Translations under genes and position numbers: made by a program | The notes under the pieces: generated by a model | What the model was told of the DNA's origin: nothing | The model's database searches: none | The model's input: only the letters and a program-made list of their open reading frames with translations | Shown: positions 50,195-56,308 of the stretch, piece after piece | How the letters are laid out: each line of letters starts with the position of its first letter | Position numbering within the stretch: the first letter of the stretch is position 1 | Assembly (NCBI GenBank): GCA_963717005.1 | Contig: OY970324.1 | Span: 658,937 to 722,936, forward strand | Origin: an uncultured delta proteobacterium | GTDB taxonomy: Bacteria > Desulfobacterota > Binatia > Binatales > Binataceae | Direction of reading: 5' to 3' | DNA: 64,000 nucleotides

Positions 50195-52267
50195 ATGCGG
50201 TTTCCTATTTTGATCGTCGCGACAATTCTGACGACAGCGCTGCTTGCGCCGATCGCTCGCGCTCAGACGCCCACGGCCGCGTCTTCGCCAGCGCAGACAC
50301 AAACCAATTCTAGATCGGCAAAGAATAAAGCGAGTCAGCCGGCGACGGCGCCCAAAAAGGAAGAGGCGCAGAAGCTGAATCCGGTGGTCGTCACCGCGAC
50401 TCGCATCCCGCAGCCAATCGGCGAGATCGGCACGACCATCACGGTGGTCGAAGATCCGCAGATCCAGGCGCAGAAGATCCAGCGGGTCGAAGACGTGTTG
50501 CGGCAGGTGCCCGGCGTGCAGGTCACTCAGAGCGGCTCACCCGGCTCGGTCACCGACGTGTCGATTCGCGGCGCGACGCCGTCGCAAACGCTGGTGCTCA
50601 TCGACGGGGTCGAGGTCAACGCGGGCGCGACCGGCAGCTTCGACATGGCTAACCTGACCACAGACAATCTCGATCGCGTCGAGATTTTGCGCGGCGCGGG
50701 CGGCTCGCTCTACGGCTCGCAGGCTATCGGCGGCGTCGTCAACGTGCTGACTCCGGAGGGCGAAGGCCCCCCGACCGCGAGCATCCTTTCCGCTGGCGGC
50801 AATCGCGCGACCAGCCAGCAAGTTGGGACCTTCAGCGGCGCCGATGGAAACCTCCACTACTCGGGCGGAGTGTCGTACTTCTCGACCGAAGGATATCGCC
50901 CGGTCAACGACAACTCTGACGACCTCGCCGGCAACGTGCGGCTCGACTACCATCTCGGCGACGACACCGTGCTCCGCGGCTTCGCGCGTTACTCCGCGTC
51001 GAACGTCAGCCTGCCAAATTTCCTGGTGTTTTCGGGCGTGCCGCTCGACTCGACTGCGCATCAGCGCGACGAGTTCATGCTGTTCAAGGGCGAAGTCGAG
51101 CATCACTTCGGCGAAAGCCTGCTCGTGCGCGTGAGCGCCTCCTTCGTGCGCCAGGACGTGCGCGTGAACGCGCCGCCATTTCCGGGTGGCACCGTTTTCG
51201 GCACACCTTATTTCGAGACCGATTCGATTCCCGAGGAGACCCGCGGCGTCAACGCGGAGGCGACCTACACCTGGCCCGCCGCCTTGCCCGGCTTCCGCAC
51301 GCTGGTGGGCTTCGATTTTCTCGATCGATGGCTGCGCACGGACAGCTCCTGCAGCTTTTGCGATCCGCTGCCGCCGTTCGGAATCGGAGTGACCAAATTC
51401 CACGCGGGCCGCCAGGAATACGCCGGCTATCTCGAGCAGGAGGGCAGTCTCTTCGACGGCCACTTGCTCGTCACCGGCGGATTCCGCGTCGATGGCAACA
51501 GCCAGTTCGGCGAGGAGGTCAGTCCCGCGTGGTCGGTCGCGATTCCGATTACTAAAATCTCGACCACGCTGCGCGGCAGCTACAGCGAAGGCTTTCGCGC
51601 GCCCGCATTCGACGAGCTGTACTACCCGAACTTCGGCAATCCCAATCTGAAGCCCGAAATTTCGAGCGAGTACGACGGCGGCTTCACCACCAACTTCGGC
51701 GAGCGTGCCTCATTCACCGCGACCTACTTTTCGCGCCGCGTGAAGAACCTGATTGTCACCGTGCCATGCCCGACCTGTGTCTTCGGATCGGAAGCGGGCA
51801 ACGCGGCGCGCGTCGATGTGCAAGGCGTCGAGATCGCGCCGAGCCTCACGATGGCCAAGGGACTAACGCTGAGCGGCAACGTGACTATTCTCGACGAGAC
51901 GCACGTCGATGCGCGCGGCTCGACGGCGCAGCCGCTGCGGGTGGCGAAGCACACGGCGTCGGCGCTGGTGCAATACGTGCGCAGCGGGACTTTTCTGCCG
52001 CACGACAAAATCGTCGCCAACGTGAGCTACGTCTTTGTCGGCGATCGCGACGACATTACGGTCGAGTCCACGATCGCGAATCACTCGGCGTACAACCTGG
52101 TAAATGCGGTCGTGTCGTACACGATGGGAATCCCGCTGAATCACATAAACAACGAAGAGGTCTTCGCGCGCGTAGGCAACCTGATGGACCGCAACTACTC
52201 GGAGGCCTTCGGCTTCAAAGCCCCGACGATCAACGTGCTCGCCGGCATCAAGCTGGATTTCGAGTAG
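50195..52267 (+). CDS. btuB: TonB-dependent cobalamin/cobinamide receptor
   Basis: Signal peptide; VVVTATR TonB-box region; plug domain (VEILRG.GGSLYGSQAIGGVVN); NPNLKPE; terminal Phe-Glu; B12 riboswitch upstream. Confidence 0.9.
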   Translation: MRFPILIVATILTTALLAPIARAQTPTAASSPAQTQTNSRSAKNKASQPATAPKKEEAQKLNPVVVTATRIPQPIGEIGTTITVVEDPQIQAQKIQRVEDVLRQVPGVQVTQSGSPGSVTDVSIRGATPSQTLVLIDGVEVNAGATGSFDMANLTTDNLDRVEILRGAGGSLYGSQAIGGVVNVLTPEGEGPPTASILSAGGNRATSQQVGTFSGADGNLHYSGGVSYFSTEGYRPVNDNSDDLAGNVRLDYHLGDDTVLRGFARYSASNVSLPNFLVFSGVPLDSTAHQRDEFMLFKGEVEHHFGESLLVRVSASFVRQDVRVNAPPFPGGTVFGTPYFETDSIPEETRGVNAEATYTWPAALPGFRTLVGFDFLDRWLRTDSSCSFCDPLPPFGIGVTKFHAGRQEYAGYLEQEGSLFDGHLLVTGGFRVDGNSQFGEEVSPAWSVAIPITKISTTLRGSYSEGFRAPAFDELYYPNFGNPNLKPEISSEYDGGFTTNFGERASFTATYFSRRVKNLIVTVPCPTCVFGSEAGNAARVDVQGVEIAPSLTMAKGLTLSGNVTILDETHVDARGSTAQPLRVAKHTASALVQYVRSGTFLPHDKIVANVSYVFVGDRDDITVESTIANHSAYNLVNAVVSYTMGIPLNHINNEEVFARVGNLMDRNYSEAFGFKAPTINVLAGIKLDFE

Positions 52268-52278
52268 GATGCGCCTTT

Positions 52279-52585
52279 TGTCATTTTGAGCGCGGAGAGA
52301 TGGCTTGTCATCGTGACTGAAGCGAGCAGCGCGGGCTCTTAACTCTGTCCTCCTGACGAAGCGAGCAACGCGACCATTTTTGTCATCCTGACAAAGCGAG
52401 CAACGCGAGCGGTCGGAACAATCTCGGACAGCTTCGCGTCAGCGAAGCTGGTACCGGTTTTGTAATCGCGCAGATGTCCTTACTCTCATTGGATGCAGCA
52501 ATGCAGAACCGGAACCGGCGGCGCTCACGCGCCGCTGTCCGAGATCCTTCCTGCCGCTCGCGCTGCTCGCTTCGTCAGGATGACA
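52279..52585. repeat. REP/REPIN-like cluster: three degenerate direct copies plus a 52-bp inverted pair
   Basis: TGTCATCCTGAC.AAGCGAGCA.CGCGAGCGG..GGAA..ATCTCGGACAGC at 52381-52432 and inverted at 52534-52585 (46/52 identical); partial copies start at 52279, 52306 and 52346. Confidence 0.8.
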
Positions 52586-52618
52586 AGAGTTGCGTGCCCG
52601 CTGTGGCGTCGGAGACCC

Positions 52619-53188
52619 TCACACAATCTCAGTGTGGAGCAAGCTGTTCTGCGCGGCGGCGAAATATCTATCGAAGATTGCGCGGGTTCGATCGCGACGC
52701 TCCGCCAGTTTCGCAAGCATTCGGGCTGCAGGATCTGACGTATTCGGTTCCAGGGACTGAGGGCCAACCGGAAGCTCCGGGGGGAGCGGAGTGTTCATCG
52801 GGGTCGGTATCGCGGCTCCTGATGGCGCTGGCGCGGGGCCGCTTCCCGGGGCTGTATTGGCTGCTCCGCTGAAGACGCTTGAGAGCGTTATACAGAGCTG
52901 CCAGTCGGAATTGGGGAAAGGCGTAAGCTTTTTCAGCTCCTCCGGAGTCATGTTTTGGGCGGAGGCGGACTGACTGAATACGGCGCGGCAATGTTCGCGC
53001 ATGGCCGTCCATCCTGCCTGATCCCACCCATTGGCCCTAAAATTCGGTGGGATCCCTTCTGGAATGAAGCCTACCGGAGCATTGCCGGTCGGCGCTGCAG
53101 ACGGCGTCTGCGCGTTGGCGTTCGTCCCCACCAGCGCTGCGACCAGAGTGACGACGATCACGATTGGCGCTGCTCTTACAGCGTTCAG
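52619..53188 (-). CDS. Hypothetical secreted Pro/Ala-rich protein fused in frame to a displaced copy of the glnE C-terminus
   Basis: GGAGG then CTG at 53188 (or GTG 53161); signal peptide ending ANA; ends AARMLAKLAERRDRTRAIFDRYFAAAQ. Confidence 0.55.
   Translation of the reverse strand: MNAVRAAPIVIVVTLVAALVGTNANAQTPSAAPTGNAPVGFIPEGIPPNFRANGWDQAGWTAMREHCRAVFSQSASAQNMTPEELKKLTPFPNSDWQLCITLSSVFSGAANTAPGSGPAPAPSGAAIPTPMNTPLPPELPVGPQSLEPNTSDPAARMLAKLAERRDRTRAIFDRYFAAAQNSLLHTEIV
52649..52729 (-). repeat. Diverged direct-repeat copy of the glnE 3' end (partner 53357-53437)
   Basis: 69/81 identical; 9 of 12 differences are synonymous in the glnE frame. Confidence 0.9.
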
Positions 53189-53341
53189 TTATTCCTCCGG
53201 TTGCTTGCGGATCGAATGCCAATCACGACGCATCTTGCTGACCGAGAGTTACTTTGTCCTACCGGCAGTTGACACCCGAAATTGCGATGAAAGTCAAACG
53301 GAAGTGCTGCGCGCAGATGACGACCGCAAAGGCTCAGTGCA

Positions 53342-56308
53342 TCAAGCTCCCCTTGCCTGCTCGGCCGCAAAATATCGATCGAAGATTGCGCGGATGCGGT
53401 CGCGGCGCTCGGCCAGTTCCGCGAGCATTCGGGCGGCGCCGTCGGCGCCGTCGAAGCCCATTCGGCGCGCCAGTGGGCGAATGCCAATCACGGAGGTTTG
53501 GATCGCCCAGGCCGGCTGGTCGCTCTCGATGCGCAGCCGGTTTTCCAGGCGCGACAGGAATCGGTAGTCGTCTTTGAGAATCGCGGCATCGGCGGCCTTC
53601 AGCAGATGCAAGCCGGCGAGCGCTTCAAGCGATTCCATCGTGTTGCGCACGCGCAGCTCGCGATGCCGATGGCCGTGGCTCAGCGCCATCATCTGCACCA
53701 GGAACTCGACATCGACCAGACCGCCGTGGCCCTGCTTGATGTTGAGCCGGGTCTTGTCCTCGGCGCCGATTTCCATTTCCATCCGCCGGCGCATCGCCGC
53801 TATCTCGCCGACCTCGGCCGCCGTCAGTCCGCGGCCGTACACGAATTCCTGGCGCGCCGCTTCGACTTCGCGGCCGAGTTCGGCGTCGCCCGTTATCACG
53901 CGCGCGCGCACCAGCGCCTGCCGCTCCCATACCGCGGAACTTTGCCGATGATAGTCGCGAAAGCCCGCCAGCGACGTGACCAACGGGCCCGCGTTGCCCG
54001 ACGGACGCAGGCGCAGATCGAGTTTGTAGGCGTAGCCCTCGCGCGTGCGCGATTCGAGGATCGCGATCAGCTTCTGCGTGATTCGCGACGCGATTTCGGG
54101 GCTGCCCGCGGCCGCTTCCGCGCGATCGTCATAAACAAAAATCAGATCGAGGTCGGAGTTGTACGACATCTCGCTGGCGCCGAGCCGGCCCATCGCGATC
54201 GCGCACAGGCGCATCGTGGGCGGAATCGTGAAGCGCGCCGCAGTCTGAATTCGCGCCAGCGCCATCGCTTCGTCCAGCACCGTTTCCGCCAGACTCGTCA
54301 GCTCGCGCTCGACCTCGAACAACTCGAGGCTGCCGGCCAGGTCGGCAATCGCGATGCGCAAGAATTCCTGGTGACGAAAGACGCGCAGCGCATCGAGCTT
54401 GCTCTCGAAATCGGGACTCGCCGCGATCAATCCCGCCAGCTCGTCGCGCAGCTCGGCCGGACTGCGCCGCGTCGCCGCCAGGTCCGAGCGCACCAGCGTG
54501 TCGAGCATGTCGGGATGGCGGATGAAGATGGTCGAGAGGTAGGCGCTCGAGGCGAACAGCCGCAGCAGGATGCGGCGGGTCGCGGGATGTTGCTCGAGCA
54601 GCGCGAGGAACGACGTTCGCGCGCCGACCGCGGCGATGAACTCGGCGAGGTTCATCAGCGCCAGATCGGGATCGGGCAGTTTGCCGATCTCGTCGATCAT
54701 CATCGGGCCGAGGCGCTCGAGCAGCTCGCGGCGGCGCGGGCTGGTCGGCGCGTGCGAGGGTCCCCGTGCGAGCAGTTCGAGATGGCGCGCGCTCTCGTCG
54801 GCGCGCGCGAAGCCAAGCTCGCGCAGGTAGCGCGTCGAGGATTCCGGATCGAGCGCTGAGTTCCAGGCGAGTTCCGCCGCGGAGGAGACCGAGCGGGTTG
54901 AGTCTTCCTCGCCGCCGGCCAGGGTCTCGCGGAACTGCAGCTCGACCAGTGCGCGATGAGTCCTGAGCAGCTCGCTGAATTTCCTGATCGCCGCCGCACC
55001 TTTGCCAAAACCCATTCGCGCCGCCAGCGCGTGCATCCCGTCCTTGTCGGGGGGCAGCACGTGCGTCTGCAGTCCGGCCACGACTTGCAGCTTGTGCTCG
55101 ACGTCGCGCAGGAACAGGTATGCGTCGGCGAGTTCGCGCGCGCGTTTCGATGGCAGGTAGCCGAGCGCGTCAAGCTTGTCGAGCGCGGCGACGGTCTGCT
55201 CGATTCGCAGCCGGGGATCGCGTCCGCCATAAATCAGCGTCAGCGCCTGCACGATAAATTCGAGTTCGCGGATTCCGCCGCGGCCGAGCTTGATGTTGCG
55301 CTCGATCATCGCCGGCGTCTTCAGCTCGGCCTCGATCTGATGCTTCATCGCGCGCAACTGACGCAGCGTGTCGAAGTCGAGGTAGCTGCGAAACACAAAA
55401 TGATTCAGCTCCGCGCGCAACTGATAGCCGATTTCCAGATCGCCGGCGACCGGCCGCGCCCGCAGCAGCGCCGCCCGTTCCCACGGCTCGCCCAGGTTCT
55501 CGTAGTAGTTGATCGCACCGTCAATCGGCGTGACCAGCGGCGCCGAACGACCGCCGGGGCGCAGCCGCAGATCGATTCGAAAGCATCGCGCCGACAGAAT
55601 TTCGGTGAACCATTCGCCCAGCCGCGCCGCCGCTTCGGAACTGTCCGGCGATCCCGGCGACGCGTGAAGATAAATCAAATCGACGTCCGAGCTGAGGTTG
55701 AGCTCGCGCGCGCCAAGCTTGCCCATCGCCAGCACGCAGAATCGCCCAATCGCCCGCGAGCGCTCGCCCAGAAACCGGGTCGCAAGATTAAGCGCGGTGC
55801 GAATGCATTCGTCGGCCAGCTCCGACATCGCGAGCGCCGTCTCGCCGACGCTCAGCCGGTCGAGCAAATCGGCAATCGCCACCTGCACCATGATGCGGCG
55901 CATGAACTGTCCGAGCACCGCCGCGGCAGCCTGGCGATCGGGCGCGTCGATCGCAGCCCGCTCGGTGCGCATCGCAGCGACGAGACCGTCAACGGTCTGG
56001 GCGCGCGCATCGAGAAAAATGTTTGCCCAACTCTCGCCGGCTAGAGACAGCTCGGTCGCGACCAGCTCCGACGAGCCGAGACAAAAGATCAGATCGGCGC
56101 CGGCCGCGCGGTCGCGCAACACCTCCTTCAGGTCGGTGGCGGAATTTTCGGCGAGCTTGGTCAGAAACGCGAGCGCCAACTGCTCGTCAGGCGCACGATC
56201 TTCGACGGCGGCAAGCGCCTGCTGGGCCAGCCGATCGTTGCCGAGCCTCTCCTTCAGCCGTCTGGCGAGGACGGCGAGTTGCGGCGATTGCGCGGCCTTG
56301 CGTGGCAT
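53342..56308 (-). CDS. glnE: Bifunctional glutamine synthetase adenylyltransferase / adenylyl-removing enzyme
   Basis: Two NTase domains: MGKLGARELNLSSDVDLI and MGRLGASEMSYNSDLDLIF; IDLRLRP.G; NIKLGRGGIRELEF; WERQAL.RAR. Confidence 0.96.
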   Translation of the reverse strand: MPRKAAQSPQLAVLARRLKERLGNDRLAQQALAAVEDRAPDEQLALAFLTKLAENSATDLKEVLRDRAAGADLIFCLGSSELVATELSLAGESWANIFLDARAQTVDGLVAAMRTERAAIDAPDRQAAAAVLGQFMRRIMVQVAIADLLDRLSVGETALAMSELADECIRTALNLATRFLGERSRAIGRFCVLAMGKLGARELNLSSDVDLIYLHASPGSPDSSEAAARLGEWFTEILSARCFRIDLRLRPGGRSAPLVTPIDGAINYYENLGEPWERAALLRARPVAGDLEIGYQLRAELNHFVFRSYLDFDTLRQLRAMKHQIEAELKTPAMIERNIKLGRGGIRELEFIVQALTLIYGGRDPRLRIEQTVAALDKLDALGYLPSKRARELADAYLFLRDVEHKLQVVAGLQTHVLPPDKDGMHALAARMGFGKGAAAIRKFSELLRTHRALVELQFRETLAGGEEDSTRSVSSAAELAWNSALDPESSTRYLRELGFARADESARHLELLARGPSHAPTSPRRRELLERLGPMMIDEIGKLPDPDLALMNLAEFIAAVGARTSFLALLEQHPATRRILLRLFASSAYLSTIFIRHPDMLDTLVRSDLAATRRSPAELRDELAGLIAASPDFESKLDALRVFRHQEFLRIAIADLAGSLELFEVERELTSLAETVLDEAMALARIQTAARFTIPPTMRLCAIAMGRLGASEMSYNSDLDLIFVYDDRAEAAAGSPEIASRITQKLIAILESRTREGYAYKLDLRLRPSGNAGPLVTSLAGFRDYHRQSSAVWERQALVRARVITGDAELGREVEAARQEFVYGRGLTAAEVGEIAAMRRRMEMEIGAEDKTRLNIKQGHGGLVDVEFLVQMMALSHGHRHRELRVRNTMESLEALAGLHLLKAADAAILKDDYRFLSRLENRLRIESDQPAWAIQTSVIGIRPLARRMGFDGADGAARMLAELAERRDRIRAIFDRYFAAEQARGA

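Follow-up and report, generated by a model that had tools for sequence, protein, structure and literature searches.

Downstream of the intact nitrogen-regulation gene glnE of an uncultured soil bacterium, we have found that the 3′ end of the gene occurs a second time, beyond a truncated gene for a secreted protein; the duplicated end is probably a scar left where two haplotypes of the glnE-btuB locus have recombined in Candidatus Binatus. A scar of this kind is ordinary, as is the biology otherwise, yet it is a clean natural example: it belongs to a multi-genome record, from an uncultured soil phylum (Binatota), of gene-sized DNA being gained and partly erased at a junction of core genes without the machinery of mobile elements. 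The duplicated gene end, which has diverged in the manner of coding sequence, is a built-in marker of two lineages having contributed to one locus, and it calls for caution in annotation, i.e. a duplicated gene end alone is not evidence of an integrase att site.

The features of the locus are listed below by their positions in the window, the whole stretch of 64,000 nucleotides that has been analysed; the genome of the window (4.58 Mb) is referred to as G000, and an asterisk stands for a stop codon.

50195..52267, plus strand: btuB-like gene of a TonB-dependent receptor, convergent with glnE (right-hand neighbour in the genomes with an empty site)
52305..52612, no strand: cluster of REP/REPIN-like repeats, with units of 35-36 nt and an 83-nt inverted repeat (repeat search)
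52619..52648, minus strand: tip of copy B, NSLLHTEIV* (comparison with genome G012)
52649..52729, minus strand: tail copy B, the second 3′ end of glnE, in frame with the truncated gene and fused to it (repeat)
52730..53188, minus strand: first 153 codons of the secreted-protein gene, i.e. signal peptide, N-terminal domain and Pro-rich linker
53189..53341, minus strand: leader or upstream region of the secreted-protein gene
53342..53356, minus strand: ARGA* tip and stop codon of glnE (comparison with relatives)
53357..53437, minus strand: tail copy A, the functional glnE 3′ end, AARML...FAAEQ (repeat and clade comparison)
53342..56308, minus strand: glnE (glutamine synthetase adenylyltransferase), 988 aa, intact (ORF list and Pfam)

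The product of glnE is identified as GlnE by its domains, with PF03710 (GlnE, 1.5e-106) and PF08335 (GlnD_UR_UTase, 6e-52) each matching in two stretches.

The two copies of the glnE end

A repeat finder has detected a single long direct repeat at the locus, 52649-52729 against 53357-53437, where 69 of 81 nt (85%) are identical; with an E value of 2e-20 against the whole genome, chance similarity of the two copies is rejected, and only one further, partial copy of the glnE tail occurs genome-wide (C1:2949750-2949804). Both copies are read on the minus strand, in the frame of glnE (copy A, AARMLAELAERRDRIRAIFDRYFAAEQ; copy B, AARMLAKLAERRDRTRAIFDRYFAAAQ), and they differ by 9.0 synonymous and 3.0 non-synonymous changes according to the Nei-Gojobori method (dS 0.65, dN 0.05, omega 0.08). 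The probability that at least 9 of the 12 changes would be synonymous under neutrality is 4.7e-4, and the omega matches that of glnE between species (0.10). The counts of the preliminary description are thereby confirmed, and its claim that each copy evolved as the coding end of a glnE gene, the two in different lineages, is supported by the low omega. An assembly chimera, which would have overturned that description, is excluded by a 151-nt metagenome contig that spans 52626-52776, including the junction of copy B with the adjoining ORF, with 0 differences, as well as by the independently assembled sister genome G003, which has the same order of copy A, islet and copy B.

The 5′ part of copy A resembles the host clade, and its last ~21 nt and tip match a clade of the “occupied” haplotype (G007, G050 and G002); the end of copy B (AAAQ) and its tip match the host clade. 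The tip of copy B resembles the native glnE tip of the clade-mate G012 (DSLSV*), with a 2-nt difference in length that shifts the stop codon; in G000 as well as in G003, the point at which copy B diverges is exactly that of the glnE orthologues. The ARGA* type of tip is linked to the islet in G000, G003, G001, G007 and G056, and also at a second locus of G000 that contains a paralog of the secreted-protein gene. It is supported that the functional end, copy A, belongs with the inserted block, while copy B would be either the displaced native end or an end imported from the “empty” haplotype. The 2 clade-informative sites in the 81-nt tail do not suffice to place the crossover in G000; sliding-window identity has given no clear breakpoint along glnE in G000, and along btuB it has revealed a mosaic without a close donor.

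The glnE-btuB site in related genomes

The comparison of about 45 related soil-bacterium genomes has revealed a gene of the secreted-protein family between glnE and the convergent btuB in eight Candidatus Binatus genomes (G000, G003, G001, G005, G007, G050, G056 and G042), and empty sites in about 24 genomes of the genus, where glnE directly faces btuB and the family gene is absent. Of the empty sites and larger integrase-bearing islands that the preliminary description had proposed to look for in relatives, empty sites do occur, and so do larger islets, none of which is an integrase-bearing island: inspection of the ORFs has found no recombinase or integrase at the eight occupied sites and no recombinase in the other glnE-downstream regions of the relatives examined, and the genome search for tyrosine recombinases (PF00589) has its nearest match more than 800 kb away from the window and 190 kb away from the paralog locus, so that the window and the surroundings of the paralog are free of them. 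The statement that no integrase remains is thus borne out.

In G000, the remainder of the glnE-btuB spacer is occupied by the REP/REPIN-like cluster, which matches well over 100 places in the genome. The cargo of the spot varies between genomes, consisting of the family gene, of REP elements or, in G061, of a toxin-antitoxin-like pair.

The second glnE end is 96 nt long in G000, 108 nt in G003, where it is located directly 3′ of the terminator of the family gene, 30 nt in G007 and 0-3 nt in G050. In G042, it is the end of btuB that is duplicated instead (192 nt; the two btuB 3′ ends are identical at 188 of 200 positions), and this end meets the leader at a microhomology of 10/11 nt, GCG(G/T)CGTGATT; at the junction of G000, where CCT meets GCAGCC, the microhomology is at most 1-2 nt and not definable. 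The sister pair G007 and G013 is particularly close, with 97.2% identity in glnE and 98.3% in the downstream flank, and G007 has an insert of 849 nt. The last 85 nt of glnE contain 15 mismatches between the two, against a background of ~2.7 per 100 nt, and this excess points to an imported tract of ~100 nt; after the insert, a 30-nt remnant (FATEQAIGF*) matches the functional tip of G013 at 29 of 30 positions. A donor-type substitution tract at the homologous junction is therefore present in G007, while in G000 it is suggestive only (the 3′ 21 nt of copy A).

At the paralog locus (C1:2.949 Mb, 2.2 Mb away), a glnE tail of 55-70 nt, the ARGA* tip and the leader are located upstream of the paralog; this tail begins exactly at the end of a 301-nt duplicated gene flank, which implies the same topology of a duplicated anchor. 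The dS of the islet between G000 and G003 (0.12) is lower than that of glnE (0.37), so that the islet has been shared more recently than the split of the hosts.

Origin of the duplicated end

The recombination that we favour would have involved an “occupied” haplotype, in which glnE has the ARGA* type of tip and is followed by the conserved leader and the gene for a secreted protein of ~950 aa, and an “empty” haplotype, in which glnE has a different tip and directly adjoins btuB. A piece of DNA from one haplotype would have entered a genome with the other; one of its ends would have recombined by homology, in glnE or btuB, and the other would have been joined illegitimately at a short microhomology, which is clear in G042 but, as a point against this reading, not in G000. 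The gene end would now be present twice because the incoming piece bore its own copy of an end that the recipient already had; the order that results in G000 would be glnE ending in tail A and the ARGA* tip, then the leader and 153 codons of the truncated gene, and after these tail B with its own tip, the REP elements and btuB. Both the pathway and the route of DNA entry are inferred; homologues of ComEC and DprA are present in G000, but they are weak support, because most control genomes (10 of 14) have them too.

The joining of the second end would follow homology-facilitated illegitimate recombination (de Vries and Wackernagel), in which one end is reportedly anchored by homology and the other joined at a microhomology of a few bases. 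As in that process, foreign DNA is trapped beside the anchor, and the functions of recombinases or mobile elements are not needed; unlike in that process, the event is deduced from natural genomes, a gene end is duplicated and the partners are two haplotypes of one locus. Since the textbook form deletes recipient DNA and does not duplicate the anchor, the observed topology requires an incoming piece from the opposite haplotype, or two steps. Integrase-free hotspots between core genes are known in bacterial pangenomes and are usually ascribed to clean double crossovers in the flanks; they share with the present site a single intergenic spot with different cargo in different genomes but, unlike the glnE site, they leave no duplicated gene ends.

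A direct repeat of the homologous segment on both sides of an insert is also produced by insertion-duplication of the Campbell type, which requires a circular intermediate and enough homology. A circularised fragment that comprises the glnE tail (from about -108) with its ARGA* tip, and the family gene with its leader and terminator, could have integrated without an integrase, through a single RecA-dependent crossover within ~100 nt of glnE homology, leaving two reciprocal hybrid tails; in G000, the remainder of the gene would have later been lost by deletion. All three duplications (the glnE tail, the 192 nt of btuB and the 301-nt flank at the paralog locus) have the required form of an insert between two homologous segments, the host-like 5′ and donor-like 3′ parts of tail A and the host-like 3′ part of copy B are as reciprocal hybrids would be, and a block bearing ~108 nt of glnE would accommodate the boundaries at -96, -104 and -108. 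We nevertheless regard this origin as unlikely: homologous recombination would act poorly on 81-108 nt that are 85-90% identical and contain no exact match longer than 16 nt, the haplotype boundary in the pair G005/G042 and in G003 is located at the tip (about -15) and not at -108, the 5′ part of copy B is not clearly like the donor clade, and no circular form has been seen. That three boundaries are located near -96 to -108 nt of glnE (copy B in G000 and in G003, the tract in G007) nevertheless tells somewhat against the favoured origin, as it may point to a block whose end is defined. It is very improbable that the gene, its leader and ~70-108 nt of glnE tail form a recombinase-free, “self-homing” cassette, in which the tail would be a homology arm that repeatedly re-targets glnE in naive genomes and would be carried along even on landing elsewhere, e.g. 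at the paralog locus; as a lesser variant of this reading, the stump with the N-terminal domain would be a candidate functional small secreted protein.

The preliminary description had seen in the locus the footprint of an element that brings, in its att site, a replacement 3′ end for glnE; on this reading, later deletions would have removed the integrase together with most of the cargo. A parallel would be the prophages phage 21 and e14 of Escherichia coli, which integrate in the 3′ end of icd and have an integrase, an att core that is defined and boundaries that are fixed; there, as here, the insert supplies a replacement 3′ end that keeps the gene intact, and a diverged second end with mostly synonymous differences is found beyond the insert. 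The flanking direct repeat of the end of the target gene, the empty sites in relatives and the lengths of copy B in G000 and G003, which are within the range of att-borne gene ends, agree with such an element. Against it, a recombinase occurs at none of the places searched, independent occupants do not share the same boundaries, with glnE ends of variable length and with btuB duplicated in G042, the right end of the insert in G003 is the own terminator of the family gene, and the cargo is an ordinary chromosomal gene of a host paralog family, host-like in its GC content (0.58-0.62), that also occurs with its leader at non-glnE loci without any glnE tail; we regard the att-site interpretation as very improbable. 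A local tandem duplication of the glnE tail, the leader and the start of the gene, in an ancestor where the gene already lay downstream of glnE, with deletions thereafter, would produce exactly the junction between gene interior and glnE tail, and an internal tandem duplication of the N-terminal domain does occur in G003. Such copies would have been identical at birth, with copy B expected to decay neutrally, which is at odds with the low omega between the copies; moreover, copy B is not followed by an ARGA* tip and leader, its divergence coincides with that of the glnE orthologues, and the tips of the two copies are from different clades, so that this origin is hardly credible.

The truncated gene and its family

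The ORF at 52619-53188 (minus strand) has a signal-peptide-like N-terminus that runs in frame into copy B, and the codon that follows GGAGG-N5 (GGAGG at 53194-53198) is CTG, directly preceded by an in-frame TAA; the fusion and the CTG codon of the preliminary description are thus real, and so is the signal-peptide-like N-terminus of the secreted ORF. This ORF is not an orphan, however, but a truncated member of a family of ~950-aa secreted proteins that is specific to Candidatus Binatus. The start codon is ATG in four relatives and in the paralog, GTG in G003 and CTG in G000, where it has decayed from ATG. The stump with the N-terminal domain is open in G000, G003, G007 and G050; in G000 it is most likely a decaying pseudogene, and with it the proposed chimeric secreted protein, the in-frame fusion to copy B being incidental.

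A homologue search for the family has returned only 15 unnamed metagenome proteins, and the stump and the paralogs of 615 aa and 954 aa match no family in Pfam or NCBIfam. The AlphaFold model of one family member is poor (mean pLDDT 52.6); its weak resemblance in Foldseek to beta-propellers (GH32/GH43 enzymes and sialidases, TM at most 0.47) is a lead, and not a finding, that the family protein may be a beta-propeller. The Rfam search of the leader and the islet has given no real match, only spurious plant-miRNA matches to the REP hairpin, and the promoter and terminator scan of the islet has given nothing that exceeds shuffled sequences. Within the leader, a block of 68 nt (53244-53311) is identical to the leader of the paralog.

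The duplicated end of glnE

In the window, which occupies C1:658937-722936 of a 4.58-Mb single-contig genome (G000), the repeat finder has returned a single long direct repeat: the 3' end of the functional glnE (tail A, 53357-53437) and a second glnE end (tail B, 52649-52729), identical at 69 of 81 positions and separated by DNA that we call the islet. The two reading frames concerned are:

53342-56308, minus strand: glnE, 988 aa, with the expected GlnE and GlnD_UR_UTase domains
52619-53188, minus strand: open reading frame fused in frame to tail B, with a signal-peptide-like start

The A/B pair has an E value of 2e-20 against the whole genome, and the whole-genome comparison has revealed only one further copy of the glnE tail, a partial one. 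Both tails are in the glnE frame, and our substitution counts agree with the preliminary description: nine synonymous and three non-synonymous changes separate them (dS 0.65, dN 0.05, omega 0.08), the omega being equal to that of glnE between species (0.10). Neutral decay would produce this many synonymous changes with a probability of 4.7e-4, which bears out the statement that both copies have evolved as coding glnE ends. An assembly artefact is excluded: a 151-nt metagenome contig crosses the junction of tail B and the fused frame with zero differences, and the sister genome G003, assembled independently, shares the layout.

Two related structures were also encountered. In a soil-metagenome contig (run X2; window 52587 / 53364), the REP region and the glnE tail are joined without the 776 nt that separate them in the window, nine other letters standing in between; its likely source is a related organism that has an empty site with a REP element after it. 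Genome G004 has glnE twice on one contig, about 330 kb apart; the C-terminal part of the second copy (G004:C10:378939-379821) lies in two frames (frameshift near query residue 202), and cobU comes directly after this copy.

The secreted-protein family and its paralog locus

The frame fused to tail B starts with CTG after GGAGG, as had been described as a possibility; the spacing is 5 nt, and an in-frame TAA immediately precedes the CTG. The frame is not the orphan that it was taken for. Codons 1-153 share homology with the beginning of a 615-aa frame at C1:2.949 Mb, and this homology ends exactly at 52729/52730, i.e. at the start of tail B; the 615-aa frame and the next one are a frameshifted paralog of the adjoining 954-aa secreted protein. 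No Pfam or NCBIfam model matches this family, whose homologues in our search are only 15 unnamed metagenome proteins; a low-confidence structural model suggests a beta-propeller core with a beta-sandwich, to be taken as a lead only. The gene opens with ATG in G007, G050, G056 and in the paralog, with GTG in G003 and with CTG in G000, and a comparison of the G000 stump with that of G003 gives an omega of 0.56. Most likely, therefore, the G000 frame is the stump of a pseudogene; its fusion in frame, proposed earlier to give a chimeric protein, is then a one-in-three accident. The full-length family gene of G005 (L052, reverse-complement coordinates 1146-1148) has one in-frame stop between codons 124 and 125, the sign of a pseudogene or else of an error in sequencing.

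At the paralog locus (L009, C1:2945000-2954000), two family genes lie in tandem, one of 954 aa and one frameshifted (615 aa + 394 aa), each followed by a 301-nt flank (the two 93.7% identical). The third glnE tail begins exactly at the end of this flank: the paralog is preceded by the last 55-70 nt of the tail, the same "ARGA*" tip and stop, and a 153-nt leader, so that the inserted unit starts with a glnE tail. It follows from this tail, tip and leader that the family gene travels with a piece of glnE. A 68-nt leader block (window 53244-53311) is identical at both paralogous loci.

The coding sequences beside this block share only ~52% protein identity, and the Pro-rich linker holds another near-identical patch, with exact stretches of 39 and 25 nt. 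This pattern suggests either gene conversion in patches or a regulatory element that is conserved and includes the inverted repeat TTGAC-N20-GTCAA; the leader has no Rfam match.

Occupancy and junctions among relatives

Eight genus genomes (G000, G003, G001, G005, G007, G050, G056 and G042), scattered across the glnE tree, carry the family gene in the space that separates glnE from the convergent btuB-like receptor gene; glnE faces btuB over 10-500 nt in about 24 of the genomes examined, and btuB is absent from this position in a few. The glnE tip past "FAAxQ" differs between species, and an ARGA*-type tip and the leader start accompany occupancy. Among the genus genomes examined, the G061 spacer holds different cargo, a toxin-antitoxin-like pair. 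This cargo (C1:1384620-1386800, L083) is 1.3 kb long and lower in GC, with two minus-strand frames of 229 and 133 aa that, judged by sequence, look like a DUF433-type / PIN-like pair.

The junctions differ from genome to genome. The G003 islet contains two rearranged family genes and ends with the gene's own 3' end, the terminator hairpin and 15 nt, the join to glnE lying at -108; its second glnE tail has its own tip (GR*), followed by rearranged DNA. Compared with its 97%-identical empty-site sister G013, G007 carries an 849-nt insert and 15 substitutions clustered in the last 85 nt of glnE, an imported tract; past the truncated gene, a 30-nt remnant (FATEQAIGF*) matches the functional tip of G013 at 29/30. 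In G050 the family gene breaks off at about codon 137, and the join falls at the native stop codon. In G042, glnE keeps an empty-type tip; between it and a complete btuB lie, in this order, 192 nt of the btuB 3' end, the leader starting at position 111, and gene fragments. The two btuB ends are identical at 188/200, with the junction within GCG(G/T)CGTGATT.

Probable recombination between haplotypes

The last 21 nt and the tip of tail A match the G007/G050/G002 clade, whereas its 5' part, like the 3' part and tip of tail B, matches the host clade, the B tip resembling that of G012. The islet dS between G000 and G003 is 0.12, one third of their glnE dS (0.37), so the islet was shared after the hosts diverged. 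Since A and B differ mostly synonymously even where both look host-clade-like, tail B may have come in from an empty haplotype instead of being the resident end that was displaced; the informative sites are too few for a firm choice. An import of this kind would, moreover, have removed most of the family gene.

All structures are covered most simply by recombination of occupied with empty haplotypes, homologous at one end and illegitimate at the other, in which the incoming piece would bring a gene end already present in the recipient. The second glnE ends would be short because a longer glnE arm would recombine cleanly, without a scar. Homology-facilitated illegitimate recombination and insertion-duplication are expected to give products that match the layout seen here. 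A circular fragment integrated by a single crossover is a possible alternative, yielding the same topology. Tandem duplication in situ is rejected on two grounds, the coding-type divergence of A and B and the different tip of B.

The preliminary description favoured an element whose att site carries a replacement glnE end. The layout does mimic that of phage 21/e14 at icd, and comparison of relatives has supplied both empty sites and other cargo; however, every element-specific feature of the phage case is missing, and two of the three features that define an integrase/att remnant fail here. Inspection of reading frames and a PF00589 genome search have found no recombinase at any of the junction sites described, within the window or near the paralog locus, in agreement with the earlier remark that no integrase is left. 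Recombination between haplotypes would make this locus a new natural example of a kind of event already known, from a phylum that has been little studied.

On the btuB side, window 52305-52612 is a REP/REPIN-like cluster of 35-36-nt tandem units, with an 83-nt inverted repeat (41-nt loop); it matches well over 100 places across the genome, often just past gene stops, and the family also lies after the glnE stop in G055 and G043. In the window (50195-52267) and in relatives, btuB shows two sharply different allele types (about 60-70% vs 80-90% identity to G000) in a ~300-nt stretch 800-1100 nt from the stop, and their distribution conflicts with the glnE tree; recombination around the glnE-btuB junction is therefore frequent. 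A cobalamin riboswitch (101.6 bits) upstream of the receptor gene in G007 (L047 735-895) confirms its B12 link.
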